This document shows positions 6,904-63,426 of a stretch of 64,000 bases of DNA, in pieces. The notes beneath the pieces are model-generated. The model ran no database searches, had not been told where the DNA came from, and was given only the letters and a program-made list of their open reading frames with translations. The number at the start of each line of letters is the position of its first letter. Position 1 is the stretch's first letter. The stretch spans positions 3,073 to 67,072 of the forward strand of contig CAZFAP010000004.1 of NCBI GenBank assembly GCA_964516325.1, read 5' to 3'. Made by a program: the position numbers and the translations under genes. The DNA comes from an uncultured Verrucomicrobiota bacterium. GTDB taxonomy: Bacteria > Auribacterota > JABMQX01.

Positions 6904-7270
6904 CCGAGCTTCGACCGTTCCTGCAAATCCGCGCCGGGGCGCTCAACCTCTTTGGGCGCTCCGGCTTTTTGTCACTCGCAGGCGCGGTGGCGCGAAGATG
7001 CCGCTGTGTTTTCCTGGCATAGCTGTGGTCTGTTCCCCTCATCATAGGGATGGACGGCACCGAAAGGCCGCAGCGGACGAACTTGTTGCGCCCTATGCTC
7101 GCGTTCGCCGTTGCTGTGCGATGGGTATCTTGCCCGCCAAGGACCTGCTATTGAGGGGTGCTGCCAGAGGCAGGATGCCGCCGAGAATTCCATGGCATGC
7201 AGGTGCCTTCTCCCCTTTCCCCAAAATCGCGCGCGGCCAGAACCGGTTTCACGGCCATCCGCTTTATTCG

Positions 7271-7299
7271 TTGACACCGCCACCGTTTTCGGGTTACTT
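7271..7299 (+). promoter_or_regulatory. Putative promoter of the NHL-repeat gene
   Basis: TTGACA (7271-7276), a 17-nt spacer, then TTACTT (7294-7299), about 40 nt upstream of the RBS AAGGAGG and the ATG at 7339. Confidence 0.3.
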
Positions 7300-7338
7300 T
7301 CTCTGCCGAAAACTTGCAAGTTAAAAGGAGGGGATGCC

Positions 7339-10923: not shown

Positions 10924-13176
10924 ATGAAAAACTCACTCGCAACCTCACGCCTCGCAAACAAATCGAGGACCGCCCATTTCTGGCGTGTCGCCTCCATTAT
11001 CCTGCTCCTCGCGCTATTCATTGTCGTGCCGGTCTCGTCGCACCCGGAGCAACCCTCGGACTGGCAGACGGTCGGACAGGAAGGGCAAGGAAAACTTCTT
11101 TCGACCAGAGGGCAGAGAGTTCTGGTTCTCAAAGGGACGCCCTACGAAATTGGCTTTCAGCACGGGAAACTGCTCGCCAAGGAAGCGGCGCAGGATGCGA
11201 AGGCGTACCTCGACGATTGGGCTATTGGGAAACGCGGGGAGTCCAGATCGTCGCTCTCGAAGATATTCGAGTCCCTGCGACCGTTTATCCCCGAGCGATA
11301 CATGGAAGAGATGAAAGGGCTCGCCGACGGCTCCGGCGTACCCCTGGAAGAAATTCATCTCCTTCACGCGATTCCGACCCGCTTCCACTGCACGGGAGCC
11401 GCTGCGTTTGGCAAAGCGACCGCCGACGGGTACCTTTATCACACCCGCAGCCTCGATTACAGCCTCGACGTGGGCAGCCAGAAGACAGCCCAGGAGAATG
11501 CGGCGCTGATTGTCTTTCAGCCCGAGGAAGGGAACGCTCACGCGGTGCTGTCCTGGGCGGGGCTTATCGGCTGCGTCTCCGGGATGAACGCAAAAGGGAT
11601 TTCCATCGGCGAGATCGGGAATGCGTGCCGCGACGAAAGCTACTCAGGGATGCCGATGATTTTCATGCTGAGGGAAGCGCTCCGAACGTGCGAGAGCCTC
11701 GACGAGGTCATCAACTTCATCGGCAAAGCCCCCCGGACGTGTGGCTTCACGTTCGTCGTTGGGGACGGCAAGATTCCCTCCGCGTCTGCGCTGGAGGTCT
11801 CCCATTCGCGGATGGCTGTGGGGCGACCGGGCGATCCAAAAAGCGACCCTCCTCCCCACTCCCCGATCACGGACGCTGTCCGTCGCGGAAACTATTTCGT
11901 TGATAGGGAAATGGCTGCCGTTCAAAGAGACGAGTACGACCCCCGAATTTCGGCTCCGGAGCATTGGCTCGGGTATTCAGTGATGAGCGGGTTTCTCGTC
12001 GAGAACCTCGGACGGCTCAACGACATCAAGATGATTGAGCTCCTGCGAAAGTACCCGCCGGAGCACCCCTGCCTCCACCAGGCGGTCTTTTGTCCTTCGA
12101 CGCTCGAGTTGTGGGTGTCCAACGCGGTCTCGCCCGCCAAAGCGAAATTCGCCGGCGCCCAGAACCAACCCTTCTATAAGTACAACCTCGCAAAATTGAT
12201 CGAGGGTATTCCATTTGAAGTCATCGTCGCCGAGCCACCTGCACGCTCCACCGGCGTCTTGCCGCGCCCGGAGACGGGGACGACGACCATCTCCGAAAAG
12301 GAGGAATTCATTTCGGACGGCTCGCTCTCACCGTTCCGCCTCAAAAAGAAAAACTTCGATTGGGTTCTGACGTACGATTCCGCGACCGACAAGTATTTCG
12401 TCGCTGACCTTTCCTTCCCGTCAGAAGTCGAGACCCCGTGGCTTGAAGTCAATACGGTTCTTGCCGAATATTACCTCCCGAGAAGCACAGAGAAGATGCC
12501 CGGCGTCATCGTCCTTGACATCCTCGAAGGGAATTTCGTCGTAGCCCGGACCCTCGCCCGAACGCTCGCGGACAACGGCATTGCGGCTCTTCCGCTGCAT
12601 CTCCCCTTTTTCGGAAAACGCAGGCCAAGGAACGGTCCCGAGGAAGCCATGATTTCGGGAGAGATTGATTTGACATGCCGCTTGATGACACAAGCTGTCC
12701 TCGATATCCGGTGTGCCGCGCAGTGGCTCAGAACGCGCAAAGAGATTGACGCGGGAAAGACCGGCATAGTCGGGGTGAGCCTCGGGGCGATTACGGGCGC
12801 CCTCGCGATCGGCGTGGACGGCGGCTTCACGAAAAACGCCCTCGTCTTGGGCGGCGGAGACATAGCGCAGATCGTCTGGACGTCGCCCGAAACCGTCAAA
12901 GTGAGGGAACAGCTAATCGAAAAGGGCTACACGCTCGAAAAGCTGCGCGAGGAGCTGCGCCCGGTTGACCCCCTCACGTACGCTCACCGCATCAAGCCCT
13001 CCACCGTGATGATGTTCAACGCGAAAAACGACCAGACCGTCCTCCCCGATTGCACGACGAAGCTGTGGCAGAAAGCCGGACAACCGAAAATCGTGTGGTA
13101 CAACACCTCCCACGTCGGCGCGGCGATGTACATGAACAAAATCCTCGAGGAGATCATCGCCTTTGTCCGGGAATGA
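10924..13176 (+). CDS. Fusion protein: C45-family (acyl-CoA:6-APA acyltransferase-like) Ntn peptidase domain plus a C-terminal alpha/beta-hydrolase domain
   Basis: N-terminal signal anchor. C45-like region with the probable nucleophile in FHCTGAAAFG. C-terminal GxSxG (GVSLGAITG) and a dienelactone-hydrolase-like tail with a His in NTSHVG. Confidence 0.65.
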   Translation: MKNSLATSRLANKSRTAHFWRVASIILLLALFIVVPVSSHPEQPSDWQTVGQEGQGKLLSTRGQRVLVLKGTPYEIGFQHGKLLAKEAAQDAKAYLDDWAIGKRGESRSSLSKIFESLRPFIPERYMEEMKGLADGSGVPLEEIHLLHAIPTRFHCTGAAAFGKATADGYLYHTRSLDYSLDVGSQKTAQENAALIVFQPEEGNAHAVLSWAGLIGCVSGMNAKGISIGEIGNACRDESYSGMPMIFMLREALRTCESLDEVINFIGKAPRTCGFTFVVGDGKIPSASALEVSHSRMAVGRPGDPKSDPPPHSPITDAVRRGNYFVDREMAAVQRDEYDPRISAPEHWLGYSVMSGFLVENLGRLNDIKMIELLRKYPPEHPCLHQAVFCPSTLELWVSNAVSPAKAKFAGAQNQPFYKYNLAKLIEGIPFEVIVAEPPARSTGVLPRPETGTTTISEKEEFISDGSLSPFRLKKKNFDWVLTYDSATDKYFVADLSFPSEVETPWLEVNTVLAEYYLPRSTEKMPGVIVLDILEGNFVVARTLARTLADNGIAALPLHLPFFGKRRPRNGPEEAMISGEIDLTCRLMTQAVLDIRCAAQWLRTRKEIDAGKTGIVGVSLGAITGALAIGVDGGFTKNALVLGGGDIAQIVWTSPETVKVREQLIEKGYTLEKLREELRPVDPLTYAHRIKPSTVMMFNAKNDQTVLPDCTTKLWQKAGQPKIVWYNTSHVGAAMYMNKILEEIIAFVRE

Positions 13177-13281
13177 CAGCGAAGTTCTCGGCGCGGAACT
13201 GCGTTTGGGTCCCTGAAGCGGCAGGGCGCTGGCGCCCACAGAGCTGGGGTCACCGCAAGCGTCGGTAATCGCTCAGCTACG

Positions 13282-13355
13282 TGGGGACTCACCGCGGAGA
13301 GCGCAGAGGACGCCCCCCGAAGGCGGGGTGGCATGCCGCCTTTGGCGGGACCCGT
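13282..13355 (+). repeat. ~65-bp direct repeat, copy B (see 10595-10660)
   Basis: Sequence identity to copy A as described for that feature. Confidence 0.5.
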
Positions 13356-13581
13356 GTCCCGAGGGCACACCTCCAACCGCCTGGGGCGACGAAACCCACG
13401 GTCCTGTCAATCCCGTACATCCTGTTCATCCTGTCCAACTTTCCCCCTTCCCGGCGTTCCTCGCGACCCCTGTGGGTCAATACCAACAACCCGACCACCC
13501 GTAAGTGAGGCGCTACATCAAATGCAGGAAATCTTATCCTCCGCCGGAGACTGAGGCCTTACGCCGAATAAGACTTTTCTC

Positions 13582-13611
13582 TTGACAGACAAAGTCCACT
13601 ATTATTATTCT
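13582..13611 (+). promoter_or_regulatory. Putative promoter in an AT-rich island upstream of the first multihaem cytochrome gene
   Basis: TTGACA (13582-13587), an 18-nt spacer, then TATTCT. It lies in the only strongly AT-rich stretch nearby (ctattattattctcattatcaaaatagg). That would give a ~200-nt leader to the ATG at 13820. Confidence 0.3.
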
Positions 13612-13819
13612 CATTATCAAAATAGGAATGATATCTCGGTTTGCTGACCGAATCCCACTCGCGGGAGCTTCAGAGATGGCGTCGCCAGGATTGCCACTTC
13701 GTCTGAGGCGCCTATGCGGGTCCGTCCCTACCACACAGGCTGGAGGCGGTGAAAGACGCGGAAATGGATTTGGTCGGGAACTGAGGGAAGTCAGTGCCCG
13801 GCTCACCCGGGAGGTAAAG

Positions 13820-15937
13820 ATGAGAAGGCGGCTGATTGTTGGTTGCGTCATCCTATGCGGCTCGCTTGTGTCCGTTCGGGACGTTAGTGGGACGGCGCCA
13901 GCGTGGCTGGCTTGCGAGAACTGCCACCGGGAAGGGGCGATGCTCGAGACGCTGAAGCACCACAAGCTGAGCAGCTCAGACCTAACGCTGAGGGAGGCTC
14001 TGGACGAATGCGTGGGATGCCACGAGCCGGGGCTCCAAAAGGGGGAGAAGTCCTTTTCCTACAGGGTCCATCGGATCAGTGGGCACAGCATCTACGAAAA
14101 GGCCTGCGCCGTATGCCACGCGAATTCGGAAGGGAACGATTATCCGATGGCATGGGACTGCGGGACCTGCCACGCCACACACAAGAACGGCGAGGCTTTT
14201 CCGAGCAATCAACCGTGCATGGACTGCCACGACGGAAGTCAGGCGGCGACTGCCGACGCTGCTCACGAGATTCCTCCAACGGAATACCAGACATCGGGGC
14301 TGTGCAAGGACTGCCATCGCACCGACTACGACAAGTGGAGAAATTCGTCCCACAGCCGGATCATCCGAGAGGTCGGCGACCCGAAGTACACGGGCACAAA
14401 GTTTGGGGTTCTGGGGACCTGGGCCGACGGGACCTGGTCGCAGTTTTCGTTGAGCGATCCGAACGCCGGGATTCCCCCGGTTACCGTGTACACAAAGGCG
14501 GAGGGGGGGGTGTACAAGTTGAAGCTTGGCGACCCGGTGACAGGGCCCGAATATACGGTGGCGCGGACCCTCGGGGGAGGAAACGCGTGGAAGCAGCACT
14601 TTCTGACGAAGATAGGTTTAAGTCACTACATTCTTCCGATGCGGTGGGTTGAAGCGAAAAATGTGTGGGCCGCATACGGACTGAAAGACTGGTTTGACAC
14701 GGCGGGGAATCCAAGAACCCCGGCGAAGGGGCGCTCGTATGAGCGAAGGTGCGCCGGCTGCCATTTCACGACATCGTCCTCCGTTGCCTATAACGAGACG
14801 AGCCAGGAGTATTTTCTGACTTTCGGGGAGTCAAACGTGGGTTGTGAGAGGTGCCACCGTCCCGCGGGCGGGCATCTCAATGCCGGCGGCGGGCCCGGAG
14901 TGGGAACGATCAATCCAGCGACTTTCCCGGACAAGTTGCAGCGAGGAGAGTTGTGCGGGCAGTGTCACTCCCGCGGTTCGAGCGTCTATGTCAACGCGAG
15001 CGACGGGTTATCCCGAGACTACCCGTGGGCCGCAGCGACCCTCGAGCACCCACAAGGAAGAGGGTATCAGCCGGGAGAGAGCCTCTGGAACCTCTATAAT
15101 CTCATTTCACCGCCGGACCCCGACCTATGGGGAGACACCCCTCCCACCTCGAAGGGGCATCGCCAGGAGTGGCTGGACTTCCAGAATAGCCCCCACTACG
15201 AGCCGGCGAGCATGGCCTGCTGGGACTGCCACGACTCCATGGGTTCGACCATTCCGCATGAGTTGAAGTGGCAGAACGACAATAACGAACTTTGTTTGCA
15301 TTGCCACGGGACGGGTGAGGGAGGCTCGGCGTCGTCCCAGTTTGCCAAACCTTATGACGTCGAAGTCCCCAAGCACACGCGCCACGCCTACAACCCGGCA
15401 AACAATAACCCGCCCGACCCCGATGGGTACGGTCAGAGCCGATGCACCAGGTGTCACATGCCGAAAGTCGCCATATCGGCTGCGCCTTATGACGTTCATG
15501 CTCACACGTTTGAGACCCTGGTTCCCGCCAGCACTCTCGAATTGGCGATGCCGAGCTCCTGCGCCGTGAGCTGCCACCGCAAATATGCCAATGCGGCGCC
15601 CGGACGTCCGGGGTACGGCGACTACTCTTTGTCTGATTGGACTGAGGAGACCGACAGGAAGCTGGCGGCCTATCTCTCGAAGTTCGAGGAGGCGTGGTTC
15701 GAGGGGAAGGCGCACGTCCTGGAGGTGGTTTATTCCGCTAATTTTGTCACGTTCACATGGGTCTCCGAAGAGGGGAAGACGTACGTGGTTTACCGGGCTG
15801 ATGGACTGGGAGCCTCGGCGACGTGGAATCTCCTGGCGGAGGTCCTCGGCAAAGCCGGAAGCAGAACCTCGTCTTTCACGGACACCGACATCATCGGTCC
15901 CAGTTCCCGATTTTACCGAGTTCTCGGTGTGGAGTGA
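13820..15937 (+). CDS. Secreted multihaem c-type cytochrome with 12 CxxCH motifs and 1 Cx3CH, and a C-terminal FN3-like RFYRV module
   Basis: RBS GGGAGGT 5 nt before an ATG giving the signal peptide MRRRLIVGCVILCGSLVSV. Haem motifs: CENCH, CVGCH, CAVCH, CGTCH, CMDCH, CKDCH, CAGCH, CERCH, CGQCH, CWDCH, CLHCH, CTRCH and CAVSCH. C-terminus ...FTWVSEEGKTYVVYRADGLGASATW...SSRFYRVLGVE. Confidence 0.85.
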   Translation: MRRRLIVGCVILCGSLVSVRDVSGTAPAWLACENCHREGAMLETLKHHKLSSSDLTLREALDECVGCHEPGLQKGEKSFSYRVHRISGHSIYEKACAVCHANSEGNDYPMAWDCGTCHATHKNGEAFPSNQPCMDCHDGSQAATADAAHEIPPTEYQTSGLCKDCHRTDYDKWRNSSHSRIIREVGDPKYTGTKFGVLGTWADGTWSQFSLSDPNAGIPPVTVYTKAEGGVYKLKLGDPVTGPEYTVARTLGGGNAWKQHFLTKIGLSHYILPMRWVEAKNVWAAYGLKDWFDTAGNPRTPAKGRSYERRCAGCHFTTSSSVAYNETSQEYFLTFGESNVGCERCHRPAGGHLNAGGGPGVGTINPATFPDKLQRGELCGQCHSRGSSVYVNASDGLSRDYPWAAATLEHPQGRGYQPGESLWNLYNLISPPDPDLWGDTPPTSKGHRQEWLDFQNSPHYEPASMACWDCHDSMGSTIPHELKWQNDNNELCLHCHGTGEGGSASSQFAKPYDVEVPKHTRHAYNPANNNPPDPDGYGQSRCTRCHMPKVAISAAPYDVHAHTFETLVPASTLELAMPSSCAVSCHRKYANAAPGRPGYGDYSLSDWTEETDRKLAAYLSKFEEAWFEGKAHVLEVVYSANFVTFTWVSEEGKTYVVYRADGLGASATWNLLAEVLGKAGSRTSSFTDTDIIGPSSRFYRVLGVE

Positions 15938-16135
15938 TTCTCTGAAGACTCTGCCGTCGGCGTGAACCGCGGATGTAGCTGGCCACGGGGCAATGAGCCG
16001 CCGAATTCAGCGGATGGAACCGCGGAATCCGGATGCTCGGTTTTCATTGCTTGGAGAGAATAAGTCGGCTGTCCATGGGCCTTTTGTTCGGGTGGCGCTG
16101 TTTCTGAAGAGGCGGGAGGAAGGAGGAAACCGTAC

Positions 16136-19100
16136 TTGCGTAACAGGCTTGGGACACGGAGGATAGGAGGAAGATTCGTGAAATCGGACAGGCATACGTT
16201 GGCCGGGCGCCTGGCGCTGCGGGCAATAGGTTCTCTCTGGCTCGCTTTCGTTCCGGGCGTGCTCACTGCTCAATCGCAGGGAATCGAATTGCTTTCCGAG
16301 CTCTCGCCTCCCTTGAACGGACAGTATTACGTGGGAGGGGAAAACGTCACTCTGACGGTCCGCGCCAGGGACGGCGGGGGTGTTGAATTCACGAACACGG
16401 ACGACATTGCGCTCCTTACCTACTATGTCAGCGGTCCGCGGCAGGATTATCGCGGCGTGATTCGTGACCAGAAGCTTATATCCGGGTTGGATTCGGGAGT
16501 CTCCTATCCCGCAGCGGGATCGTTTTCAATCCCCGAGTCGCCCCGGCCGGGCTCCTACTCAATGCTCATCCGACTGGTCACAAGAGCCGGGGAGGAGGGA
16601 TATAGCCTCAAGCACTTCAAGGTCGGTCAAGTTCAGAGCACGGTTCCGGGGTCGCTCCCCCCTCAGGGATGGATGGGATGCGAGAAGTGCCACGAAAACG
16701 GCAACATCGGCCACTACCGTCCGAAAGGCCTGGCGCTGACCGGGTCCATCGAGTATTGCCTCGTCTGTCACGCGTGGGAAACCGAGAAGCCTTTCGGCCC
16801 CACGATGCACGTCCTCCAAGAACACGACAGTCTGAAGATATTCCGGGACTACCCGAATTCGTGCGCGGTATGCCACACCGGCTCCGAAGGGAATGACTTC
16901 ATAAGCAAGGCCGCCTGTCGGTCGTGCCATCCGAATGTCGGTCCCACGGGGCACTTCGGGTTCGATTGGCCGGACAATACCTGCACCTTCTGCCACAACG
17001 ACGTCTTCGCCGCGAAGCCGGACACCATTCACAGGATCGAGCCGGGAAATTATGTAACCTCGGAGACTTGCGCGAATTGCCATGCGGACCAGTACCAGCG
17101 CTGGGACAAGACGGCTCACGCCCACGCCCTGAAACCGACTGACTCGACCTTCCGGGGAGGCGTTATTGGCAACTTCTCGCAGAGTCCCGTTTTGAGCGAC
17201 CCCGCCAACAACGTTCCGCCAGTGACGGTTTACCTTTCCAGGGAGGGAGCTACACACAGGGCGACCCTCGGCGCGGGGGGACCGACGTACCCGGTGGACC
17301 GCGTCGAGGGAGGAGGGAGCGGATGGAAGCAGCGATACCAGACCAGGATCGGCAACAGCTATTACACGCTCCCCATCCAATGGAACGAGAAAGAGGGAAA
17401 GTGGGCAGCGTTCGAGCTGCACAAGTGGTTTGACGCGCAGGGAAAGGCGAAGACTCCCGACAAGTCCGATTCCTTTGAGAGGAGATGGCTGGGCCGCTAT
17501 GCCACGAACCTACAAGTGTCCTTCGACAGCGTAACCCGCGAGTACATGGGGACGCATTCCGAACTAAACATCGGGTGCGAGGGCTGCCACGGTCCCGCCA
17601 GCGGCCATATCAACGCTGGAGGCGGCTCGGAAGGAGTCGTCAACCCGCGGGACTTTGCTCGAGACCGGGCGGGGGAAGTTTGCGGGCAATGCCATTCACG
17701 AGGAGAAAGCACTTACGTCAATTCGACCGGTGACGGGAAGCGGAGGGAATATCCCTGGTCGCCGCAGGACAAGGGCTTCCGCCCCGGAGACATCCTTTCT
17801 AATTTGTTCACCTTTACGACCTCTTTTCTGCACTTCTGGCCGGACGGCACGGCGAAATCCGAGAACCAACAGCACATGGACTATATCCACAGCGTGATGT
17901 ACTCCGCGCCTGGGGAGAAAGTGACGTGCTTCAGTTGTCACGACTCGCATGGTTCGCCGAACAACTACGACCTGGTCGCCTCGACAAGAAGGGACGGAGT
18001 CGAGATCGCCACGAAAAATGAAGACAACACCCTGTGCCTCTCCTGCCATGCAGGAAGAGGCGATTTCGCCGAGATCACGAAAGAGATGGTGGCCAATGCG
18101 GCGCGGAACCTGGCGGCGATCGGTGCGGTTGTGTCAAAGCACACGGCTCACGAGCTCTACTTCCCCATGGGAGAGGGCTTCACGGCGGTGGGGCGTTGCT
18201 CCCGCTGCCACATGCCGAAAGTAGCGACGTCCGCCGTGCCCTACGACATCCACTCACATACGTTCCGGGTCATCGAGCCGGACAGGACTCTCACCCACTC
18301 GATGCCCAGTTCGTGTGCGGCGAGCTGCCACAGGGATATTTCGAACCTCGTTCCGACGGCGCCAGGGTCCGGCGATAGGACGCTGACAAATTGGGGCGAG
18401 CCTACGGATGTGGACCTCGCGAAATTCCTCAAGGGATTTCATCACCAATGGTACGAATACGGTCCGCTCCTTCCCGAAGTTGCAGACAGCGATGGAGACG
18501 GCATGCCGGATGACTGGGAAACGGCGCATGGACTTCTGCCCGCATTTGCGGGGGACGGCTCCGCCGACCCGGACGGCGATACCTACACGAATCTGCGGGA
18601 ATATCTCGGAAGCAGCGATCCTCAAGACGCCGACTCGAAGCCCTACTCCGCCAAGGTTGAGGTCCTTTCCGTGGCGCCGCGGCTGAACGAAAAAGACGCC
18701 CAGGGAAATAGGATCGTCACCAGCGGGTTGAGCAATGTGCCGGTGGGCACGTATGTGAGGTTATCCGGCAGCGGCGCGGACTGGGAGGGGAAGGCTGTTC
18801 CGAGCTACTCGTGGACGGTGGTGGGCCCTCCGGATTCCCTATCGGCTCTCGATAACCCTTCTGCCGAGACGGTCAACTTTGCCCCGGATAGAGAAGGGCA
18901 GTATCGGGTCGAGCTACGGGTGGGAGACGCGGCGCCGACAGATTCCCCGACGGCGGTGCAAATCATCACGGTGGGCACGTGGTTGGGGAAGGAAAACTGC
19001 CAGGTCTGCCACAGCGGGCGCTACGCGGAAAGGCCCGGCTGGGAACTGGCCGACTTGTACACACCCTGGACGGAGACCCACCACGGGACCGCTTTCACGC

Positions 19101-20695
19101 GGAAGATCAGCGGGCTGAGCTCCTTCAAGGACAGTTGCGTCTATTGCCACGTGGTCGGGGACGACCGGGCGCCCGCTGCGGTCAACAACGGCTGGGACGA
19201 TTGGACCAAAGCGTTGGGATGGACCTTCCCCACGACGATCGAGCCAGCCAACTGGAGCGCCATCCAGAAGAAATACCCGCAACTGGAAAACATGGCAAAC
19301 ATCCAGTGCGAAAACTGCCATGGGCCGGGCAGCGAGCACCGCGCGGGAAAGGGCGTCATCGGCGTCAGCCTGAAGTCCGGCATCTGCGGACAGTGTCACG
19401 ATTCGCCAACCCATCACATCAAGAATTACCAGTGGGATACCTCCGCCCATGCCCACGCCTTGCAGGCGGCCGGCGGTTTTCCTTCCCGAAGCGCCAGTTG
19501 CCTGAAGTGCATGACAGCGGAAGGGTTCGTGGACGTTTTCGTGAAACAGAAGCCGACGGAGGTCATCGAGGACCCCAGTCCCGTCGGCTGCGCGACATGC
19601 CACGACCCACATACCGACGCGTTTGAGCACCATTTCCGCTTCTACGGCCTCGTGCAATTGCCCAACGGCACGAAGCTCAACGCCGGAAGGGGGGCAACAT
19701 GCTTTAAGTGCCACACGAATGACGGGGCATACCCCGGTCATCAGGCACGGCACGATCAGGCGGAGATGTTCAGCGGGACAGGAGGAGCGGAGTTCCCCGG
19801 AGTCCGATACATGTCCAGCCGCCATGCGATGCTCATCCCGGACACGTGCGTTCGCTGCCACATGTTTGAGACTCCGCCAGAGGGCGAGCCGGGACGTTTC
19901 CTCGTCGGGGAACACACGTATAAAGTGGCGTATGATAACAACACTCCGGACGACCCGGCGGACGACGTTTACAACGTGCGCGCGTGCGCTCCGTGCCATA
20001 CGGGACTGACGAACTTCAACATCAACGGAACCCAGGACCACATCACAGCCCTCACCGGTGAGCTCGAAGCATTGCTCCCAAAAGAGAACGGCAAAATCCT
20101 CTATGAGTCCACCCCCACCCGGACGCTGACCGAGGCGGAGAAGGACGCCGCGTTCAACTACTCCTTCGTTGCGGCGGACCGGAGCCAGGGGGTTCACAAT
20201 GCGCTCTACGCAAAGCAGTTGCTCTGGGATTCCATTACGGCGCTGGACGCCGACCACGACGCATCGCGAGATGAAGTGGACGCCGACGCGGATAGCGACG
20301 GCGTCGCGAACGCGGCGGACGCCCTCCCCCTGGACACGGACAATGATGGACAGCCCAACCTCATTGACCCGGACGACGACAACGATAGCGTTTCCGATTT
20401 GGAGGAATATGCCGCGAAGGGGGACTTCTTGAGCTTCTTCCCCTACTTCGTAGTGAAAGAAATGACGACCGACACCGACGGAAACGTGGTCGTTCGCTGG
20501 CAGTCTGTCCCCGGCAAGACGTACAGCATACAGTACGCCAATGTGGGAGGGACGACTCTGGAGTGGCACGTCGCCGAGCCGAGCTTCCCCGCCGCGGCAG
20601 GGAACGAAACCGCCTGGACCGACGATGGGACGAAAGCGAATCCGCCGTTGCCTGCGGTCCGCGGGAGATTCTACAGAATCCTCGTGAACCAATGA
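16136..20695 (+). CDS. Secreted giant multihaem c-type cytochrome (~1500 aa) with 19 CxxCH motifs and 1 Cx3CH, Asp-rich Ca-binding linkers and a C-terminal FN3-like RFYRI module
   Basis: A TTG at 16136 (RBS AGGAGG 9 nt upstream) or a GTG at 16178 (RBS TAGGAGG) could be the start. The central ~450-aa module is paralogous to the upstream cytochrome. An extra 8-haem C-terminal region is present. Thrombospondin-type-3-like DxDxDG stretches (DSDGDGMPDDWE; DADSDGVANAADALPLDTDNDGQPNLIDPDDDND). Ends ...RWQSVPGKTYSIQYANVGGTTLEW...RGRFYRILVNQ. Confidence 0.85.
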   Translation: MRNRLGTRRIGGRFVKSDRHTLAGRLALRAIGSLWLAFVPGVLTAQSQGIELLSELSPPLNGQYYVGGENVTLTVRARDGGGVEFTNTDDIALLTYYVSGPRQDYRGVIRDQKLISGLDSGVSYPAAGSFSIPESPRPGSYSMLIRLVTRAGEEGYSLKHFKVGQVQSTVPGSLPPQGWMGCEKCHENGNIGHYRPKGLALTGSIEYCLVCHAWETEKPFGPTMHVLQEHDSLKIFRDYPNSCAVCHTGSEGNDFISKAACRSCHPNVGPTGHFGFDWPDNTCTFCHNDVFAAKPDTIHRIEPGNYVTSETCANCHADQYQRWDKTAHAHALKPTDSTFRGGVIGNFSQSPVLSDPANNVPPVTVYLSREGATHRATLGAGGPTYPVDRVEGGGSGWKQRYQTRIGNSYYTLPIQWNEKEGKWAAFELHKWFDAQGKAKTPDKSDSFERRWLGRYATNLQVSFDSVTREYMGTHSELNIGCEGCHGPASGHINAGGGSEGVVNPRDFARDRAGEVCGQCHSRGESTYVNSTGDGKRREYPWSPQDKGFRPGDILSNLFTFTTSFLHFWPDGTAKSENQQHMDYIHSVMYSAPGEKVTCFSCHDSHGSPNNYDLVASTRRDGVEIATKNEDNTLCLSCHAGRGDFAEITKEMVANAARNLAAIGAVVSKHTAHELYFPMGEGFTAVGRCSRCHMPKVATSAVPYDIHSHTFRVIEPDRTLTHSMPSSCAASCHRDISNLVPTAPGSGDRTLTNWGEPTDVDLAKFLKGFHHQWYEYGPLLPEVADSDGDGMPDDWETAHGLLPAFAGDGSADPDGDTYTNLREYLGSSDPQDADSKPYSAKVEVLSVAPRLNEKDAQGNRIVTSGLSNVPVGTYVRLSGSGADWEGKAVPSYSWTVVGPPDSLSALDNPSAETVNFAPDREGQYRVELRVGDAAPTDSPTAVQIITVGTWLGKENCQVCHSGRYAERPGWELADLYTPWTETHHGTAFTRKISGLSSFKDSCVYCHVVGDDRAPAAVNNGWDDWTKALGWTFPTTIEPANWSAIQKKYPQLENMANIQCENCHGPGSEHRAGKGVIGVSLKSGICGQCHDSPTHHIKNYQWDTSAHAHALQAAGGFPSRSASCLKCMTAEGFVDVFVKQKPTEVIEDPSPVGCATCHDPHTDAFEHHFRFYGLVQLPNGTKLNAGRGATCFKCHTNDGAYPGHQARHDQAEMFSGTGGAEFPGVRYMSSRHAMLIPDTCVRCHMFETPPEGEPGRFLVGEHTYKVAYDNNTPDDPADDVYNVRACAPCHTGLTNFNINGTQDHITALTGELEALLPKENGKILYESTPTRTLTEAEKDAAFNYSFVAADRSQGVHNALYAKQLLWDSITALDADHDASRDEVDADADSDGVANAADALPLDTDNDGQPNLIDPDDDNDSVSDLEEYAAKGDFLSFFPYFVVKEMTTDTDGNVVVRWQSVPGKTYSIQYANVGGTTLEWHVAEPSFPAAAGNETAWTDDGTKANPPLPAVRGRFYRILVNQ

Positions 20696-20898
20696 GTCAT
20701 GGGGTCGGCGGGCCTACAAGTCAGAGAGTTCGGGTGTAGGGCGGATGCAGCCCGGGCACGACCGGCAGCACGGGTCTCACGGCTGCTCAAAGCCGATTGG
20801 AGCGACGGGAGTGTTTGTCAGGTCAGACAAGGCGGCTCCCGGAGTCTGAGCCGCGGTTGGGTCTGCTTGATGCTTGCGTGGAGAGGGAGGATGAGTGA

Positions 20899-22251
20899 TT
20901 GTCGCGCGGCGCTCGGCCCGAGGAGCTTGAAAGGGGCTGGCAATCAATCGAAACTGTAAAAAGGGCTCAACCCACACTCCTGGTTCTGCTCATTTTGTGG
21001 CGGGTCTTCTTGCCGGATTCCGGAAATGCAGAGGGTCCCGAGGAGCAGCGCCGCCCCCACCTCTCCGGTGAGGTCTCTACCAGATACCGCACGCAATGGA
21101 ATGCGGACGATACCGACCATAATTTCCTGCAGTACCTCAACTTTGACCTCAAGAACCTTCTGACGCCAAAACTTTCTCTTCACGGCTTTCTGCGCGCCGG
21201 CGAGGACCTTGACGACTCGGACCCGATTTTCGACTGGACGAACTACGACGTTCAGGACCGCATTTACGACCTGTATCTGGAGGGCGAGGGCGTCATCCCG
21301 TATTCTTCTTTTCGCGCAGGACGCCAGTATTACGATGGCCTGGAGGGAGTCCAGTTTGACGGGCTGCGATTCTTTCGGGACGAGGGGAGATGGTTGAAAT
21401 GGGGAGCCATCGGAGGAAGGTACGTGAGCTTTTATGACCGAGACCTTCAGCGAGATTCCATGGTCGCGGGCGCCCACGCGACAGCGTCCTTTCTCCGGGG
21501 CGCCTCTTTCTCGACTGAATACCTCCGGCTCATGGGCTTTCCAACAGGGGATGACGACTACCTCGGTTTCGCATTTCAGCAGCGCTTGGAACGGCTCAGC
21601 TCTCTCACGCGGTATTCGGTCCTGAACGGTGAATCCAGAGACGTCTCCACCCGTGTTTTCTGGGTTGTGGGGAGCGGCTGGGAGGTCTCCGCCAAGTACT
21701 TTCGTCTTCTTCACTCCATTGAAGAACTCTCGAACGAATTCGACCCGTATTACCCTCTTTTTGGCGCTTACATGGGATTCCACCAGTACGATGTGGACGT
21801 GACGAAGCATGTCGGCGACCGGTTCTCCGTCTCGGGCGGATATGCCGCCCGGAGACTGGTTGGGGAGGAGGTGGAGAGCGTGGCCAATAGGGAGTTCGAC
21901 AGGTACTACGCATCATTCTCGGCACGGGACGTGCCGACACGGGATTTTGGGGTCTTCGCGACGATCGAGCGGTGGCTCGCGAGCGACGGCGAGGAGAACT
22001 ACAGCGCCGGCGGGGAAGTCAGCTACAGGTTAAAACGCAAGCTGGATGTGGCGGTGGGGACGTATTACTCGAAGTACAAATACGACATAGACACGATCAC
22101 GGAAAAAACGGATGTCCGGAGCGTGTACGCGAGAGTGAAGTATCACTTCAATCCGAAAGCCTACCTTTCCGTGAAAGCGGAGAGGGAAGACGATGACTCG
22201 CCGGAATCTCCTTACGGCAGGGCTGAGATAAGGATGACCTACAGGTTTTGA
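20899..22251 (+). CDS. Putative outer-membrane beta-barrel (porin-like) protein
   Basis: TTG start with RBS GGGAGGA. N-terminal signal-like hydrophobic stretch. Alternating aromatic/hydrophobic beta-strand pattern throughout. Terminal Phe (…RAEIRMTYRF). Only 36 bp upstream of the next cytochrome gene. Confidence 0.55.
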   Translation: MSRGARPEELERGWQSIETVKRAQPTLLVLLILWRVFLPDSGNAEGPEEQRRPHLSGEVSTRYRTQWNADDTDHNFLQYLNFDLKNLLTPKLSLHGFLRAGEDLDDSDPIFDWTNYDVQDRIYDLYLEGEGVIPYSSFRAGRQYYDGLEGVQFDGLRFFRDEGRWLKWGAIGGRYVSFYDRDLQRDSMVAGAHATASFLRGASFSTEYLRLMGFPTGDDDYLGFAFQQRLERLSSLTRYSVLNGESRDVSTRVFWVVGSGWEVSAKYFRLLHSIEELSNEFDPYYPLFGAYMGFHQYDVDVTKHVGDRFSVSGGYAARRLVGEEVESVANREFDRYYASFSARDVPTRDFGVFATIERWLASDGEENYSAGGEVSYRLKRKLDVAVGTYYSKYKYDIDTITEKTDVRSVYARVKYHFNPKAYLSVKAEREDDDSPESPYGRAEIRMTYRF

Positions 22252-22287
22252 AAGGCAGAACTCATTTGCCGGAACGACGGCCAACCT

Positions 22288-23424
22288 ATGAGAAAGAGGA
22301 AGAACAAGATTAGACGGAAGAAGATGGGCTTTCTGGCAGGGGCAGCGAGCAGTGTTACTCTGGTCTCGGTTCTTCTATCCCCGCAGATATACGGGAGACC
22401 GAAGAAGGCGGACCTCATTTTCAGCCATAAGCAACACATCAAGGAAATGGAGCTTACCTGCGACGCTTGCCACGAAGGCGCCGCAAAGGAGGAAACAGCG
22501 GGTCTGCCATCGGAGAGCACCTGCCAAACCTGCCATGACTTCGACAGGGAAAAGCCTTCCAAGGCATGCCTGACCTGCCATTCCTCCGTCGAGGTGAAGA
22601 TTGCCAGAAGGAAAGGGGCTGAATACGCCGATGTGAGTTTCTCGCACGTGAAGCACGCGAACGTAGAATGCAGTGATTGCCATCCGGGCGTCGAGAAAAG
22701 CACCGAAATCGAGCGAGGGAAATACATACCCTCGATGGAGCAGTGCCTGAAGTGCCACGCGGAACTCGGTGTTTCTCAGGAGTGCCAGAGTTGCCACAAG
22801 GTTCTGCGAAAGGAGGAAAGGCCCGCTTCACACGGTGCGGGTTTCGACCGCGCCCATGGAAGGCTATCCGAGATGAGGAATGCCCGGTGCGCCGTGTGCC
22901 ACCAGAGCCGGTTTTGTCAGGAATGCCACCTCAGCCAGGAACCCCAGAGCCATACCTTTCTCTGGAAGACGAAAACCCATGGTCGCTTGTCCATGATTGA
23001 CCGGTCGAGTTGCCAGACCTGCCACAGAACCGATTTCTGCGTCGCGTGCCATTCCGAAACCCGTCCGACCAACCATGCCGGCGGCTGGGGAAACCCACGG
23101 AACACGCACTGCCAGAGCTGTCATCTTCCCCTCTCGACGAGCGGCTGCGGCGTTTGCCACAAGACCACGGAGTCGCACTTCAGCGTTCTCCCCGGAGACC
23201 ACGTTGGGAACTACGCCATAGCGCACTGTGCGAAATGTCATTTTCCGGTCAACGCGACCGATTGCGGGCTGTGCCATGCCCGAGTAAACCATGAGTCGGC
23301 CCCAGATGTGGATTGGCACCCTGACAACTGGCGGGATTGCCGTGCTTGTCATCCGTCCATACTCACACCGAAGCCTCGGCATCCCGACCCAGGACTGGGC
23401 TGCACGAGGTGTCACAGGATTTAG
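22288..23424 (+). CDS. Compact 16-haem c-type cytochrome (periplasmic, N-terminal membrane anchor or signal)
   Basis: 16 CxxCH motifs in 378 aa, about 1 haem per 24 aa, with many extra His residues for bis-His ligation. N-terminus MRKRKNKIRRKKMGFLAGAASSVTLVSVLL. Confidence 0.85.
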   Translation: MRKRKNKIRRKKMGFLAGAASSVTLVSVLLSPQIYGRPKKADLIFSHKQHIKEMELTCDACHEGAAKEETAGLPSESTCQTCHDFDREKPSKACLTCHSSVEVKIARRKGAEYADVSFSHVKHANVECSDCHPGVEKSTEIERGKYIPSMEQCLKCHAELGVSQECQSCHKVLRKEERPASHGAGFDRAHGRLSEMRNARCAVCHQSRFCQECHLSQEPQSHTFLWKTKTHGRLSMIDRSSCQTCHRTDFCVACHSETRPTNHAGGWGNPRNTHCQSCHLPLSTSGCGVCHKTTESHFSVLPGDHVGNYAIAHCAKCHFPVNATDCGLCHARVNHESAPDVDWHPDNWRDCRACHPSILTPKPRHPDPGLGCTRCHRI

Positions 23425-23675
23425 GGGGCAGCAGAGCATGGGACACCTCTGCCTGCTGCTCTTTGGCGGAGGGAAAAGAGGAATGCGCTGTCTGCTGCCC
23501 GGGCACAAGGAAAGGAAGAAGAGAAATCACCGGGAAAAGCGAACCGGGCAACAGAGGGAGTTTCGCCCTTGGATTCGCGATGAAGAAAGGAAGAACCAAA
23601 GGGAGTTCGTGGCTGTCCCTGAAGTGCCCAGTACGCGAGTTCTTACACCCAGTAACGTGTTAGAGCGCACGGACC

Positions 23676-23787
23676 TTTTTTTGACGGGATAACCCCGCCT
23701 AAGGCGGGGTCAGGGCAGGACCAGACTAATCCGGGTCATCCTGTAATCTTGTCCAGAAAAACACGTGATTGAACTTGTCCACCGCAG
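23676..23787. repeat. Composite intergenic repeat element, copy 1 (TTTTTGACGGGAT, a CCCCGCC-N-AAGGCGGGG hairpin, GGGTCATCCTGTAA and TTGAACTT modules)
   Basis: Shares ordered sequence modules with 47397-47545 and 60537-60668. Confidence 0.5.
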
Positions 23788-23873
23788 AAATAACCCGCAA
23801 CCCTCAAGGGAACTGACGAAGTCCGCAGGTGGAACAGTCCGGCAGGGGGCGGGCGACAACGGGAGTGTAAGTC

Positions 23874-25313
23874 ATGGCGAGCTTTGACCTTCCGCTCGGC
23901 AAACCTCCGGCCGCGGATACCGACGCGGGCAAGACGACGGGCTTCTTGCCAGCGGAGCTTCTTGCGGACAATGTGTTTTGGTTTTGTCGGCTGCGCTGGA
24001 TCGTGATCGCCCTGCTGTGTGTGGCAGAGGGAATGGCTGCCTCTGCAGGAGGGTTTCTTGAGCGTTACGGTGTCTATCTTTCCTCCCGCTGGCCTGTCGT
24101 ATGCGCAGCGGTCCTGGCCGTAACCAACATTCTCTTTCTGCTGGACGGACGCCGTCTCCGCAGACTCCCCGACCCCAGAGCGGCGAACACGAATCTCGTG
24201 CTTCAAAGCGTCTCGGACCTGCTCGTTCTCACGGTCGTCGTTCACTTCGTGGGAAGCGTTGAAACGTTCGCTCCCTTCGCGTACCTCTTCCACGTGGTGC
24301 TTGCCTGCATCTTCTTCCCCTCGAAACCGAGTCTCGGGATTACCCTATTGAGTTGCCTCCTTTATTCGGCATGCGTTGCCGTCGAATACCTCGGCTTGTT
24401 CCCAGCGGGAGGGCTTTTTGCCAGGTTGCCGGTACGTGCGGGCTTTCAGGCCCAGGCTACCCCTCTCGTCCTGCATGTCTCCTCCGCCATGGCTGTGTGG
24501 CTCCTGGTTTGGTATCTCGTCTCGCACCTGTCCGCCGCCGTGAGGAGGCGCGACCGCGACCTTGTCGAAGCCAATGAACGGCTAATCCGGGTGGAGAACG
24601 AGAAAGCGATGCACATGCTCCGGACAACGCATGAGTTGAAGGCGCCTTTCGCGGCGATTCAGAGCAACGTTCAGCTTCTCCAGAAGGGCTATTGTGGGGA
24701 GCTCAGCGACGAGGTCGCCGAAGTGCTTGATCGGATTGGCACCCGGTGCTTGAAGTTGTCCACCCAGATCATGGAGATGCTTCAGCTTGCGGACCTGCGG
24801 TCGCTCCCTGCCGCCGACAGCCAGCGCGAGAAAATACGGCTGGACCGTCTCCTTCACTCTGTGGCGGACGGCTTCCGTGTCCCCGCCTCTGCGCGTCGCA
24901 TCGAGATCGAAGAACGCATCCGTCCTGCCACAACAACCGGAGTGATGGGACACCTGCACATGATGCTGTCCAATGTCACTTCAAACGCTGTTGTCTATTC
25001 GAGAGAGGGAGGGCGGGTGACGGTAACATGCGAGCCGCAAGCCACAGGGGAGGTTGTTGTTACGGTCGAAGACCATGGCATCGGCATCCCTGAGCGAAGC
25101 CTTCCACACATCTTTCAGGAGTACTATCGTTCCAGTGAAGCGGCTCAGTACAACAAACTGTCCACGGGGCTCGGCCTGGCAATTGTCAGGCATATCGCCG
25201 AGTCACATGACATTGCCGTCCACGTGGACTCAACGGAAGGGGAAGGTACAGTCTTCCGGCTGACTTTTCCGGCCCCGGACGAAGAGGAGGTACTACCATG
25301 TCCCGAATCCTGA
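23874..25313 (+). CDS. Membrane sensor histidine kinase (~6 TM helices, HisKA plus HATPase_c)
   Basis: H-box HELKAPFAAIQSNVQLL. ATPase G-boxes (VEDHGIGIP, GLGLAIVRHIA). N-terminal hydrophobic segments. Confidence 0.8.
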   Translation: MASFDLPLGKPPAADTDAGKTTGFLPAELLADNVFWFCRLRWIVIALLCVAEGMAASAGGFLERYGVYLSSRWPVVCAAVLAVTNILFLLDGRRLRRLPDPRAANTNLVLQSVSDLLVLTVVVHFVGSVETFAPFAYLFHVVLACIFFPSKPSLGITLLSCLLYSACVAVEYLGLFPAGGLFARLPVRAGFQAQATPLVLHVSSAMAVWLLVWYLVSHLSAAVRRRDRDLVEANERLIRVENEKAMHMLRTTHELKAPFAAIQSNVQLLQKGYCGELSDEVAEVLDRIGTRCLKLSTQIMEMLQLADLRSLPAADSQREKIRLDRLLHSVADGFRVPASARRIEIEERIRPATTTGVMGHLHMMLSNVTSNAVVYSREGGRVTVTCEPQATGEVVVTVEDHGIGIPERSLPHIFQEYYRSSEAAQYNKLSTGLGLAIVRHIAESHDIAVHVDSTEGEGTVFRLTFPAPDEEEVLPCPES

Positions 25314-25690
25314 TTGTAGATGATGACACGGATTTTACCGAGGTCGCCAAGAAGGTTCTTCAAGCCGATGGACACGAGGTTCATGTGCTGAGTTACATCG
25401 AAAGGGCTTTAGAAACGCTCGAAGAGGAACCGCCCGACTGTCTCATTCTCGACGTGATGTTTCCGGAAGATGCTACCGCAGGCTTCGACCTCGCGAGAGA
25501 GATCCGGAAACACGAAACGCTCGCGGCCCTTCCGGTCCTGATTCTCAGCGCCGTCAACACGAGATTCCCCCTCGGCTTTGGCCCCCGCGACATTGACAAC
25601 CATTGGTTTCCAGTTCAGGATTTCCTGGAGAAGCCCGTGGATTTTGACGTCCTGAGAGAGAAAATCAAACGCCTCTGCGCTCAAAATTAG
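25298..25690 (+). CDS. Single-domain response regulator (CheY-like receiver)
   Basis: ILIVDDD...ILDVMFPE with the phospho-acceptor Asp. 130 aa. Overlaps the kinase gene by 16 nt. Confidence 0.8.
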   Translation: MSRILIVDDDTDFTEVAKKVLQADGHEVHVLSYIERALETLEEEPPDCLILDVMFPEDATAGFDLAREIRKHETLAALPVLILSAVNTRFPLGFGPRDIDNHWFPVQDFLEKPVDFDVLREKIKRLCAQN

Positions 25691-25837
25691 CGTCACGCGG
25701 GGAGCCTTTTCATGCACCACCAAGGCACGAAGACACAGAAATACCTTCGCCCAAAGGTCATCTCTCCCTTGTGTCCTGGTGTCTTGGTGGCGCCCCGCCT
25801 CAAAGTTGCCATCAGGGGGACGACATTCCCACCGTCT

Positions 25838-25867
25838 CCCGGTGAACGAAGTTCGTGAGCGACTGCG
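25838..25867 (+). repeat. 30-mer CCCGGTGAACGAAGTTCGTGAGCGACTGCG, near-identical to 63607-63639
   Basis: 28/31 identity. Contains the palindromic core GAACGAAGTTC. Confidence 0.45.
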
Positions 25868-26202
25868 AACAAGGAAAGAAAAGACTCGGCTGATTCCTTC
25901 GGCAGACGGACGTATGGGTTGATGCGGGGCAGAAGGCGCGTTCGAGTCGCGACAGGAATTTGTCCGGACCGTCAGACGCTGACTCTTCTGGGGCGGGATG
26001 CCACTTTCCTTTCGACCCGGCTGCGGCCCCCACGCTTCGTTGTCCGCCCAAGACGGAGGGGTTACAGACCAGGGTTTTTGCCCTCGACGCGGGCAGCAGC
26101 GTTTTGGTAAAGTTCCCCCATGTCCCGAGGTTCCGGTATGCTCTTGCAGCGGCCGGAGCATCGAAGGGAAGAAGCGGATACAACATCGAGGAGGATTTCA
26201 AC

Positions 26203-26796
26203 ATGCGTGAAAAGAAAGCGGAAACGGCAGAGGTCGCCGACCTGATTACGAAGATCAGGGACAGGGACGACAAGGTGCGAGCACAAGGATTGCTCGACGC
26301 CGCAAAGGTGGGGGCGCCGGCGGTCAAGCCCCTCGCGGCGGTGATGAGCGATCCGGATTTCGAAGTCGCACGAGCAGCCAGGCGCGGGTTATGGGGCGTT
26401 GTTCGGCACGTTGGCCGCCCCGGCGCGGATAACGAGAGAAAACCGGTTGTCAGCGAGCTGGTTGCGCTATTAGCCGATAACCAGCCTATGCCGGTTCGGC
26501 GGGAGGTGATGTGGATGCTGTCGGAACTGGGCGGCGACGAGTCGGTTGAGCCGGTAGCCGGATTGCTGTCGAACGCGGAACTCCGCGAGGATGCGCGGAT
26601 GGTTCTCGAAAGGTTACCGGGGCGGAAATCGCTCGCGGCTCTTCAGAGAGGACTCCAAACCGCTCCTCCCGATTTCAAGTCGAGCGTCGCGGAATCTCTC
26701 CGAGTACGCGGCGTTCGAGTACCGGGGGTTCCAAGCCGGAAGCTCGTGCCGACACGGAAGACAAACCTGAAACCCGTGGAACAACCCTCCAGGTGA
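26203..26796 (+). CDS. HEAT-repeat (PBS-lyase-like) protein
   Basis: RBS GAGGAGGA 8 nt upstream of an ATG (MREKKAETAEV...). Repeated helical ~30-aa HEAT-like units (VRAQGLLDAAKVGAPAVKPLAAVMSDPDFEVARAA...). Confidence 0.5.
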   Translation: MREKKAETAEVADLITKIRDRDDKVRAQGLLDAAKVGAPAVKPLAAVMSDPDFEVARAARRGLWGVVRHVGRPGADNERKPVVSELVALLADNQPMPVRREVMWMLSELGGDESVEPVAGLLSNAELREDARMVLERLPGRKSLAALQRGLQTAPPDFKSSVAESLRVRGVRVPGVPSRKLVPTRKTNLKPVEQPSR

Positions 26797-63312: not shown

Positions 63313-63386
63313 GCGCCCGTAGCTCAGTTGGATAGAGCAACGGATTTCTAATCCGTGGGTCACAGGTTCGAGTCCTGCCGGGCGCG
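63313..63386 (+). tRNA. tRNA-Arg (anticodon TCT)
   Basis: Cloverleaf: acceptor GCGCCCG/CGGGCGC; D-arm GCTC-AGTTGGATA-GAGC; anticodon stem ACGGA/TCCGT with loop TTTCTAA; T-arm with TTCGAGT loop; discriminator G. 74 nt, no encoded CCA. Confidence 0.85.
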
Positions 63387-63426
63387 CTTTCGCTTTCTGG
63401 GAAGGGGGCAAGGGAGGGCTTCACTG

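Follow-up and report, generated by a model that had tools for sequence, protein, structure and literature searches.

A probable porin-cytochrome conduit with a 16-haem wire candidate and an OcwA-like outer cytochrome module in an uncultured Verrucomicrobiota bacterium

Can a run of genes for a membrane barrel and three multihaem cytochromes be read as a conduit by which electrons pass through the outer membrane and, if so, is that conduit of a kind already described? The question is raised by a locus on contig CAZFAP010000004.1 (assembly GCA_964516325.1, uncultured Verrucomicrobiota bacterium), of which we analysed a stretch of 64,000 nucleotides, hereafter the window. Six consecutive genes on the + strand lie between 13.6 and 25.7 kb of this window: two large cytochromes (A and B), a predicted barrel (C), a 16-haem cytochrome (D), a histidine kinase and a response regulator. 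We consider it probable that the locus encodes a porin-cytochrome conduit in which C would serve as sheath and D as wire, A and B being outer cytochromes that distribute electrons, with the kinase and regulator as local control. As for its kind, the best reading is a variant of the porin-cytochrome clusters already described rather than an independent invention. A porin-cytochrome module had been proposed in an initial annotation of this DNA, and it is supported by four results: the 22 strands predicted for C, the barrel and D homolog standing as a pair in all 48 related loci, the co-variation of the two, and a module of B that is homologous to OcwA.

The arrangement of the four central genes was confirmed by open reading frames (ORFs) and motif counts, which return the 13, 20 and 16 haem sites that had been claimed for A, B and D among four genes on one strand. 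Gene A (13820-15937, +) encodes a secreted multihaem cytochrome with 12 CxxCH motifs and one CxxxCH; its ORF spans 13628-15937, and a Met followed by a signal-peptide-like stretch at 13820 gives a product of 705 residues. Gene B (16136-20695, +) encodes a secreted cytochrome of 1519 residues with 19 CxxCH motifs and one CxxxCH. Gene C (20899-22251, +) encodes a predicted outer-membrane protein of 450 residues without haem motifs, ending in RMTYRF, and gene D (22288-23424, +) a cytochrome of 378 residues with 16 CxxCH motifs, the candidate wire inside the barrel. The gaps between these genes are 198 nt (A-B), 203 nt (B-C) and 36 nt (C-D, as the annotation had it), followed by 449 nt between D and the kinase gene. 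Because CxxCH is confined to A, B and D within the window gene set (non-overlapping ORFs of at least 120 residues), with zero such motifs in the other ORFs, the clustering of haem genes is not a matter of chance. The module had been drawn from 13582 to 23424; the end of this span is the end of gene D, whereas its start is not the start of a gene but that of a promoter-like hexamer pair.

Gene C is read from a TTG start at 20899, with GGAGG 8 nt upstream. An alternative start at the position where the homologs begin was rejected and the long form kept, because the codon at that position is GTA in the window. An AlphaFold2 model built from 11 homologs (predicted local distance difference test, pLDDT, 77.5; predicted template modelling score, pTM, 0.71) contains 22 beta-strands between residue 56 and the C-terminus, lacks a plug domain and has its longest loop at 23 residues. 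Together with the C-terminal Phe, this bears out the beta-barrel nature that had been claimed for C, and the protein is not predicted to be soluble or in the inner membrane, an outcome that the annotation had named as counting against its proposal. With moderate confidence, then, C is modelled as a plug-less 22-strand outer-membrane beta-barrel. Since it has 22 strands and neither a plug nor a long constriction loop, such a barrel would by itself be an open hole unless filled, and a large barrel sheathing a filler would fit the principle of MtrAB. C has no specific affinity for MtrB: its matches in Pfam and NCBIfam are all below threshold, to generic outer-membrane barrel models, and its barrel profile gave only spurious matches to PDB sequences (best E 0.064).

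Evidence for a link between C and D comes from their relatives. A word-indexed search recovered 11 relatives of C, and an exhaustive HMMER search far more, with 467 clusters at 50% identity (E <= 1e-3), 326 of them at E <= 1e-10; relatives of D numbered 436 matches. A scan of representative genomes with barrel motifs from the 11-sequence alignment gave 43 loci, which were mostly from Planctomycetota, including metagenome-assembled genomes (MAGs) labelled Anammoxibacter and Brocadiaceae, the remainder coming from Nitrospirota/Thermodesulfovibrionales, SAR324, Acidiferrobacterales, Beta- and Deltaproteobacteria and Myxococcales. The pair statistics rest on 48 non-redundant related loci. In all 48 the barrel ends in Phe and the next gene is that of a D homolog, with 5-19 haems (mode 13), and in 40 of them a further multihaem gene lies within 6 kb, mostly immediately after the D homolog. 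Distance matrices of barrels and D homologs are closely correlated (Mantel r 0.867, a value reached in none of 2000 permutations), and the third cytochrome is mostly unalignable between lineages. C and D are a strictly conserved, co-varying gene pair across phyla. The same order was found in three loci picked solely for their long contigs (L005, L006 of Candidatus Abyssubacteria, and L008), in each of which a C homolog stands immediately upstream of a distant D homolog.

The usual layout of the family is a barrel, then a 12-14-haem cytochrome of ~340 residues, then an outer cytochrome, the typical D relative having ~330-350 residues and 12-14 haems; one locus (L004) carries only the barrel and a 10-haem D homolog. 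Closest to the window are L002, a 174-kb Joint Genome Institute (JGI) contig, and L009, a MAG and the closest genome; both contain a B-like 20-haem gene, the barrel, a 16-haem gene, one or more kinases and the regulator, at 64-80% identity. Genes for cytochrome c maturation (ResB, CcsA) and a sigma-54-dependent regulator lie directly upstream in L002. The initial annotation had suggested that the conduit might be independently evolved or undescribed, a suggestion that finds no support in the size of the family to which the C-D pair belongs (467 barrel clusters and 436 D matches) or in its layout, which resembles that of the Pcc porin-cytochrome clusters.

Two related loci are of note in their own right. 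The contig CAYVEO010000006.1 carries two complete barrel-cytochrome pairs ~12 kb apart (L012/L032), with a B-like 13-haem gene at 12395-15208 of L032 and, ~0.8 kb downstream of it, an ORF of 471 residues with 11 CxxCH motifs (L012 4077-5492, the same as L032 15995-17410). In MAGs of Candidatus Anammoxibacter, a 19-haem D homolog is followed by a 19-haem protein of 823-824 residues (L019 4191-6665 and L029 12784-15255), for which the window has no counterpart. By-eye reading of the sequence gives this protein an apparently multi-helix membrane domain at its N-terminus; if the helices are real, a haem wire could here be fused to an entry point in the inner membrane.

The candidate wire is unusually dense in haem. 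All 32 Cys residues of D fall within its 16 CxxCH motifs, at one haem per ~24 residues, and because its 32 His residues are exactly enough, bis-His ligation of every haem is possible. The C-terminal part contains five close pairs of haem motifs (starts 9-21 residues apart), with ~24-35 residues between pairs. The N-terminal helix and first ~160 residues match ActA (6f0k, E 1e-9; 6btm, E 1.5e-9; Foldseek 8k9e, E 4e-5), and the NCBIfam model of QrcA gives a partial resemblance, again in the N-terminal part, at 58.6 bits, below its cut-off of 180. None of the partner genes (ActB-F or QrcBCD) was found among the scanned window ORFs, and because these other genes are absent nearby, D is not taken for a subunit of alternative complex III or Qrc. 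Nor does it belong with MtrA: the MtrA/DmsE model TIGR03508 scores 22 bits against a cut-off of 192.2, and D has 16 haems rather than 10. Among D relatives with a usable N-terminus a canonical lipobox is present in 92 of 115 (~80%), and a hydrophobic stretch that ends with Cys in 13 others; because of these lipoboxes, the family appears to be mostly lipid-anchored, unlike the soluble MtrA and OmaB. The window protein and one relative (P0021) have Ser where close relatives have the lipobox Cys, and the window protein keeps its N-terminal hydrophobic helix without that Cys. Were the 16 haems spaced as in the Mtr chain, they would, as a rough estimate, span 150 Å.

The large cytochromes supply the outer part of the proposed conduit. 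A and residues 170-785 of B are paralogous (38% identity over 654 residues, E 4e-126). For one haem motif of A, CAGCH (residues 311-315), B offers no equivalent where the two align. A matches the cytochrome c7, c3 and c554 families and paired CXXCH of Pfam, and its residues 303-432 match OcwA (6i5b, E 1.6e-10). In both L002 and L009 an ortholog of B, 70-72% identical, is the gene directly upstream of the barrel; an ortholog of A was found in neither, which is why we regard A as an extra copy in the window lineage. B itself is a composite, all parts of which are encoded on the + strand: after the signal peptide comes a 12-haem A-like module (16643-18490), then a first Asp-rich linker (18485-18625, residues 784-830), a PKD-like domain (18746-18964; Pfam K319L-like PKD, 22.4 bits against a cut-off of 27), an OcwA-like module with 8 CxxCH (18986-20224), a second Asp-rich linker (20273-20410, residues 1380-1425) and a C-terminal domain of ~80 residues containing RFYRI (20447-20692). 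Both linkers, whose richness in Asp the annotation had pointed out, carry DxDxDG stretches, and they give weak, below-cut-off NCBIfam matches to thrombospondin-type-3-like models.

The annotation had also found no obvious similarity to Mtr or Pcc components, and here B tells otherwise. Residues 951-1068 match the Pfam domain Mtrc-MtrF_II-IV_dom at 64.9 bits, well above the cut-off of 30, and B matches OcwA (6i5b) at E 2.5e-23 as a whole protein and at E 5.7e-15 with the 8-haem module in isolation, as well as OmhA (6qvm, E 5.7e-9). Several haem motifs and the C-terminal helix VAAD.S.GVHN fall within these alignments (B residues ~950-1363). Over its C-terminal half, B is a homolog of OcwA. No match of A or B to the whole-protein OmcA/MtrC model TIGR03507 is listed; D matches it weakly (11.4 bits against a cut-off of 209.3). 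The features of A and B that relate visibly to the cell surface are their signal-peptide-like N-termini and the adhesin-like linkers of B; in many other loci the third cytochromes are lipoproteins with a Gly/Ser-rich linker.

The C-terminal domain of B recurs. A, B and an NHL-repeat protein encoded upstream of the cluster share a C-terminal domain of ~75-85 residues that ends in R-F-Y-R-[VI]-x(3-4)-stop, with copies found by motif comparison at 9100-9345, ~15707-15934 (A, with RFYRV) and 20447-20692 (B) of the window, all on the + strand, and in the B orthologs at ~9480-9689 of L001/L002 and ~7560-7772 of L009. A similar stretch ends a protein of 894 residues in L002 (17227-17457, - strand). 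No Pfam or NCBIfam model matches the domain even at E <= 10, and it could be a lineage-specific signal for sorting to, or anchoring at, the cell surface.

How these parts might work together can be set out as a proposal. C would fold in the outer membrane as a wide, plug-less barrel of 22 strands, and D would run through it as an insulated wire, in the manner of MtrA within MtrB, its N-terminal helix holding it to a membrane. On the outside D would make contact with the secreted A (13 haems) and B (20 haems), and the OcwA-like module of B, as terminal reductase, would pass electrons on to acceptors that are insoluble or large, for instance Fe(III)/Mn(IV) minerals, humic matter or a partner cell, with expression controlled by the kinase and regulator encoded downstream. 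The insertion of D into C is proposed by analogy, and the surface location of A and B is likewise inferred. Sequence does not fix the direction of electron flow, the acceptor or the inner-membrane donor; the heterotrophic context and the relation to OcwA favour outward transfer.

Several points weigh against this proposal. No quinol dehydrogenase, cytochrome b or other respiratory or inner-membrane donor gene is present among the scanned window ORFs, and A and B are without the lipobox typical of MtrC and OmcB. The A-B and B-C gaps (198 and 203 nt) hold no informative promoter or terminator signal that would bear on co-transcription. The structural model of D is poor (pLDDT 62.9, pTM 0.47), with an unreliable C-terminal half, and its meaningful fold matches are limited to the ActA-like N-terminal part. 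The topology of the conduit may differ from that of the Mtr model because most D relatives, by their lipoboxes, are lipoproteins, unlike the soluble MtrA and OmaB. Cytochromes of the OcwA type are related to reductases of soluble substrates (PMC6703420), and the conduit function as a whole has been arrived at by computation.

One alternative keeps the same conduit and reverses it, with electrons coming in from Fe(II), from a cathode-like mineral or from a partner in syntrophy, as happens with MtoAB and PioAB. The barrel/D family is also found in Acidiferrobacterales, Betaproteobacteria, Nitrospirota and anammox MAGs, and some of these lineages are known for lithotrophy. The haem wires of Mtr-type conduits permit electron transfer both ways (PMC7198977), and the sequence sets no direction. 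Against uptake stand the neighbouring genes, which belong to a heterotroph that degrades sugars (GH39, 3-keto-disaccharide hydrolase, GFO/IDH/MocA oxidoreductases), the role of OcwA, the characterized relative of B, as a terminal reductase (PMC6703420), and the observation that known Fe(II)-oxidizing conduits often have no large outer cytochromes (PMC4245776). We hold the reversed conduit to be a real, if unlikely, alternative.

A second alternative concerns ancestry. The pair of a barrel and an anchored, ActA-like multihaem cytochrome might constitute a separate conduit lineage, unrelated in sequence to MtrAB and OmbB/OmaB and widespread in Planctomycetota, Nitrospirota, SAR324 and others, in which the wire of the window clade grew to 16 haems and kept an uncleaved anchor. 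We see some room for this, though the odds seem to us to lie well against it. If it were true, and if D were extended as in Mtr, one protein could span the distance from the inner membrane through the periplasm to the outer-membrane barrel, and periplasmic shuttles would be unneeded.

It is considerably more doubtful that A and B work in the periplasm, reducing a soluble substrate (such as nitrite, hydroxylamine, tetrathionate or sulfite) with electrons from D, and that C is an ordinary diffusion porin or importer that is adjacent by chance. This reading is kept in play because OcwA has been likened to reductases of soluble acceptors (PMC6703420). It draws on weak matches of A and B to cytochrome c552 (5ze8, E ~0.003-0.005), and on a sulfite/nitrite reductase gene upstream of the cluster in L002. 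On the other side, the CxxCK motif is absent from the cluster cytochromes, and no model of the NrfA, HAO or MccA families matches them at E <= 0.01 (Pfam) or 0.1 (NCBIfam), PDB giving only weak matches to cytochrome c552 and NrfA (E 0.003-0.009); a match to nitrite, hydroxylamine or sulfite reductase families, combined with genes that are not co-transcribed, was the other outcome that had been named as counting against a conduit. An unrelated porin would not be expected to show the 48/48 pairing and co-varying distances, a barrel of 22 strands that lacks both plug and constriction loop is atypical of diffusion porins, and the adhesin-like linkers, the PKD-like domain and a C-terminal domain held in common with a secreted NHL protein do not suit a periplasmic enzyme. 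Least probable is that D remains in the inner membrane by an uncleaved N-terminal helix, as ActA does, and serves an inner-membrane or periplasmic chain without crossing the outer membrane, for although its N-terminal part resembles ActA and QrcA and the window copy has lost the lipobox Cys of most relatives, the score for QrcA is far below cut-off, ActB-F and QrcBCD genes are missing nearby, and the strict pairing with the barrel, which weakens the periplasmic-reductase reading as well, would be left unexplained.

Taking the outward-directed conduit as preferred, we compared it with the systems already known, of which the Pcc clusters are nearest in architecture. In the survey of these clusters, the gene of a porin-like protein with 18-22 strands never stands without that of a multihaem cytochrome of 5-14 haems, usually with an outer cytochrome in addition; the porin evolves together with its partner cytochrome, and great diversity is found among the outer cytochromes (Shi et al. 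2014, PMC4245776). The survey includes two-gene clusters in Anaeromyxobacter and in the planctomycete Candidatus Kuenenia (kuste4024/4025) (PMC4245776), whose wire cytochromes have 338-344 residues and 12-14 haems (PMC4245776; bioRxiv 10.1101/855817). By architecture the window cluster is of this type, given the 22 strands of C, its 36-nt distance from D and the 48/48 pairing. The order of barrel, wire and outer cytochrome in the wider family is that of ombB-omaB-omcB, porin and wire co-vary (r 0.867) with the outer cytochromes swapped, and typical D relatives agree with the Kuenenia and Anaeromyxobacter proteins in size and haem count, a comparison made by description only. The differences are that D of the window has 16 haems, above the published 5-14 (5-19 with mode 13 in the family here), that the outer cytochromes of the window clade lie upstream of the barrel and are not lipoproteins, and that a lipobox is found in most D relatives, a feature absent from the survey's account of the periplasmic cytochromes. 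A profile of 10 barrels from anammox-labelled, Myxococcales, delta-proteobacterial and other loci gave 97 matches in 5.8 billion proteins, none of them from Kuenenia, Anaeromyxobacter or Geobacter; those that bear a name are called 'hypothetical protein' only, and come mostly from Planctomycetota.

With MtrCAB the proposed likeness lies in an insulated wire that leads through a barrel to a surface cytochrome, B passing the threshold of the MtrC/MtrF domain. MtrB is a 26-strand sheath of MtrA, likened by its authors to secretory barrels such as FimD, and the Mtr chain measures 185 Å with 20 haems (structure 6R2Q; PMC7198977). C is not of the MtrB/PioB family (PF11854, 26 strands), D is not MtrA/DmsE, and the ~24 residues per haem of D make it denser than MtrA homologs, with ~33 residues per haem (PMC5566968). 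By the family models, neither barrel nor wire appears to be a member of the Mtr family. OcwA of Thermincola potens is described as a cell-surface terminal reductase and also as similar to reductases of soluble acceptors (PMC6703420); it (6I5B) and OmhA of Carboxydothermus ferrireducens (6QVM), both from Gram-positive metal reducers, share a homologous module with B. The module of B differs in having 8 CxxCH, against 9 haems in OcwA, and in being fused behind a 12-haem module in a protein of 1519 residues, in a diderm and next to a porin. OcwA-like cytochromes have also been reported from porin clusters of Acidobacteriota and Verrucomicrobiota (peat EET1-4; 2026 preprint 10.64898/2026.05.27.727921). 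D is like ActA, a pentahaem subunit by which alternative complex III is anchored, and QrcA, a membrane-anchored multihaem subunit of Qrc, in the N-terminal helix and ~160 residues, and departs from them in ~ten further haems and the absence of partner subunits nearby.

Further clusters, likewise recognized from genome sequences, resemble that of the window in their proposed function, and were compared by description. In Verrucomicrobia, porins are paired with cytochromes of eight conserved haem sites (PMC5615132); the window lineage, too, looks akin to the Planctomycetota/Verrucomicrobiota group. The PCC3 and PCC4 clusters of Fe(II) oxidizers include a conserved inner-membrane protein of five helices (PMC5566968); PCC3 shares with the window very haem-rich, repeat-built cytochromes and differs in that five-helix protein, which is absent from the window cluster. 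The peat clusters belong with these. Porin-multihaem clusters are also known from MAGs of the Oslofjord tunnel (PMC10732223), and two MAGs among our related loci bear the OFTM isolate prefix, as those MAGs do. Against this background the window cluster is particular in its 16-haem wire without lipobox, the 20-haem fusion with an OcwA-like module, the upstream position of the outer cytochromes and the novel shared C-terminal domain.

No new principle follows from the cluster, since sequence-divergent porin-cytochrome clusters have been reported repeatedly since 2014. At the family level, the result is useful, if unsurprising: an unnamed barrel/cytochrome pair recurs as a strictly conserved module across many phyla, with at least 467 clusters and no Pfam or NCBIfam model, and a profile of the C-D pair would be a ready metagenome marker of the capacity for extracellular electron transfer. 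The OcwA-like reductase fused into a diderm porin cluster links Gram-positive and Gram-negative solutions. If the conduit reading is true, electrons can be exchanged between an uncultured, sugar-degrading, Planctomycete-like lineage and minerals, humic matter or partner cells.

The sensor kinase and single-domain regulator that the annotation had placed at 23874-25690 were confirmed by Pfam. The membrane histidine kinase (23874-25313, +; HisKA and HATPase_c) is followed, with an overlap of 16 nt, by a receiver-only response regulator (25298-25690, +; Response_reg). Read by eye, the hydrophobic N-terminal half of the kinase apparently has several membrane segments and no large periplasmic domain. 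Orthologs of the kinase (69-72% identical) and of the regulator (72-80%) occupy the same places after D in L002 and L009, and the two probably control expression of the cluster. In L002 the D homolog is separated from the regulator by two histidine kinase genes, the first at the place (L002 12701-14110) where the window has a non-coding gap of 449 nt (23425-23873) ahead of its single kinase; because of this difference, the gap suggests the deletion of a kinase gene.

Signals of transcription are of little help. A promoter-like site, TTGACA-18 nt-TATTCT (13582-13611, +), precedes the start of gene A by 209 nt, and is the sole sigma-70-like match in 13000-26500; since 3.0 such matches are expected by chance, it has no statistical weight. 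Terminator-like sites in the region are at background level, promoter and terminator counts together being at or below chance. The intergenic gaps of the cluster contain no sigma-54-like promoter, and total matches to that pattern were below chance. These scans are uninformative as to operon structure, and of the junctions within the cluster only that of C and D is tight.

Upstream of the cluster, a secreted NHL-repeat beta-propeller protein (7111-9348, also delimited as 7339-9348, +; Pfam NHL, 343 bits) ends in the shared domain, here with RFYRV. NHL proteins also occur near barrel clusters in L032 (4216-5115), L020 (431-1321, - strand) and L022 (2762-3568, - strand), with up to 56% identity to that of the window, and this recurrence spans unrelated lineages; it is only suggestive of the NHL protein being an accessory component of the conduit. 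Other genes of the window include, besides those for sugar metabolism (GH39, 3-keto-disaccharide hydrolase and GFO/IDH/MocA oxidoreductases), a DUF1559/prepilin protein, HemB and an O-antigen-ligase/TPR protein, a content that, as far as annotation by sequence goes, is typical of heterotrophic Planctomycetota-like bacteria. Unrelated to the cluster, a bacterial alpha-2-macroglobulin of 1497 residues with MG2, bait-region, TED and receptor-binding domains is encoded at 198-4691, and a tRNA-Arg (anticodon TCT) at 63313-63387 is the only Rfam or ARAGORN match in the window.

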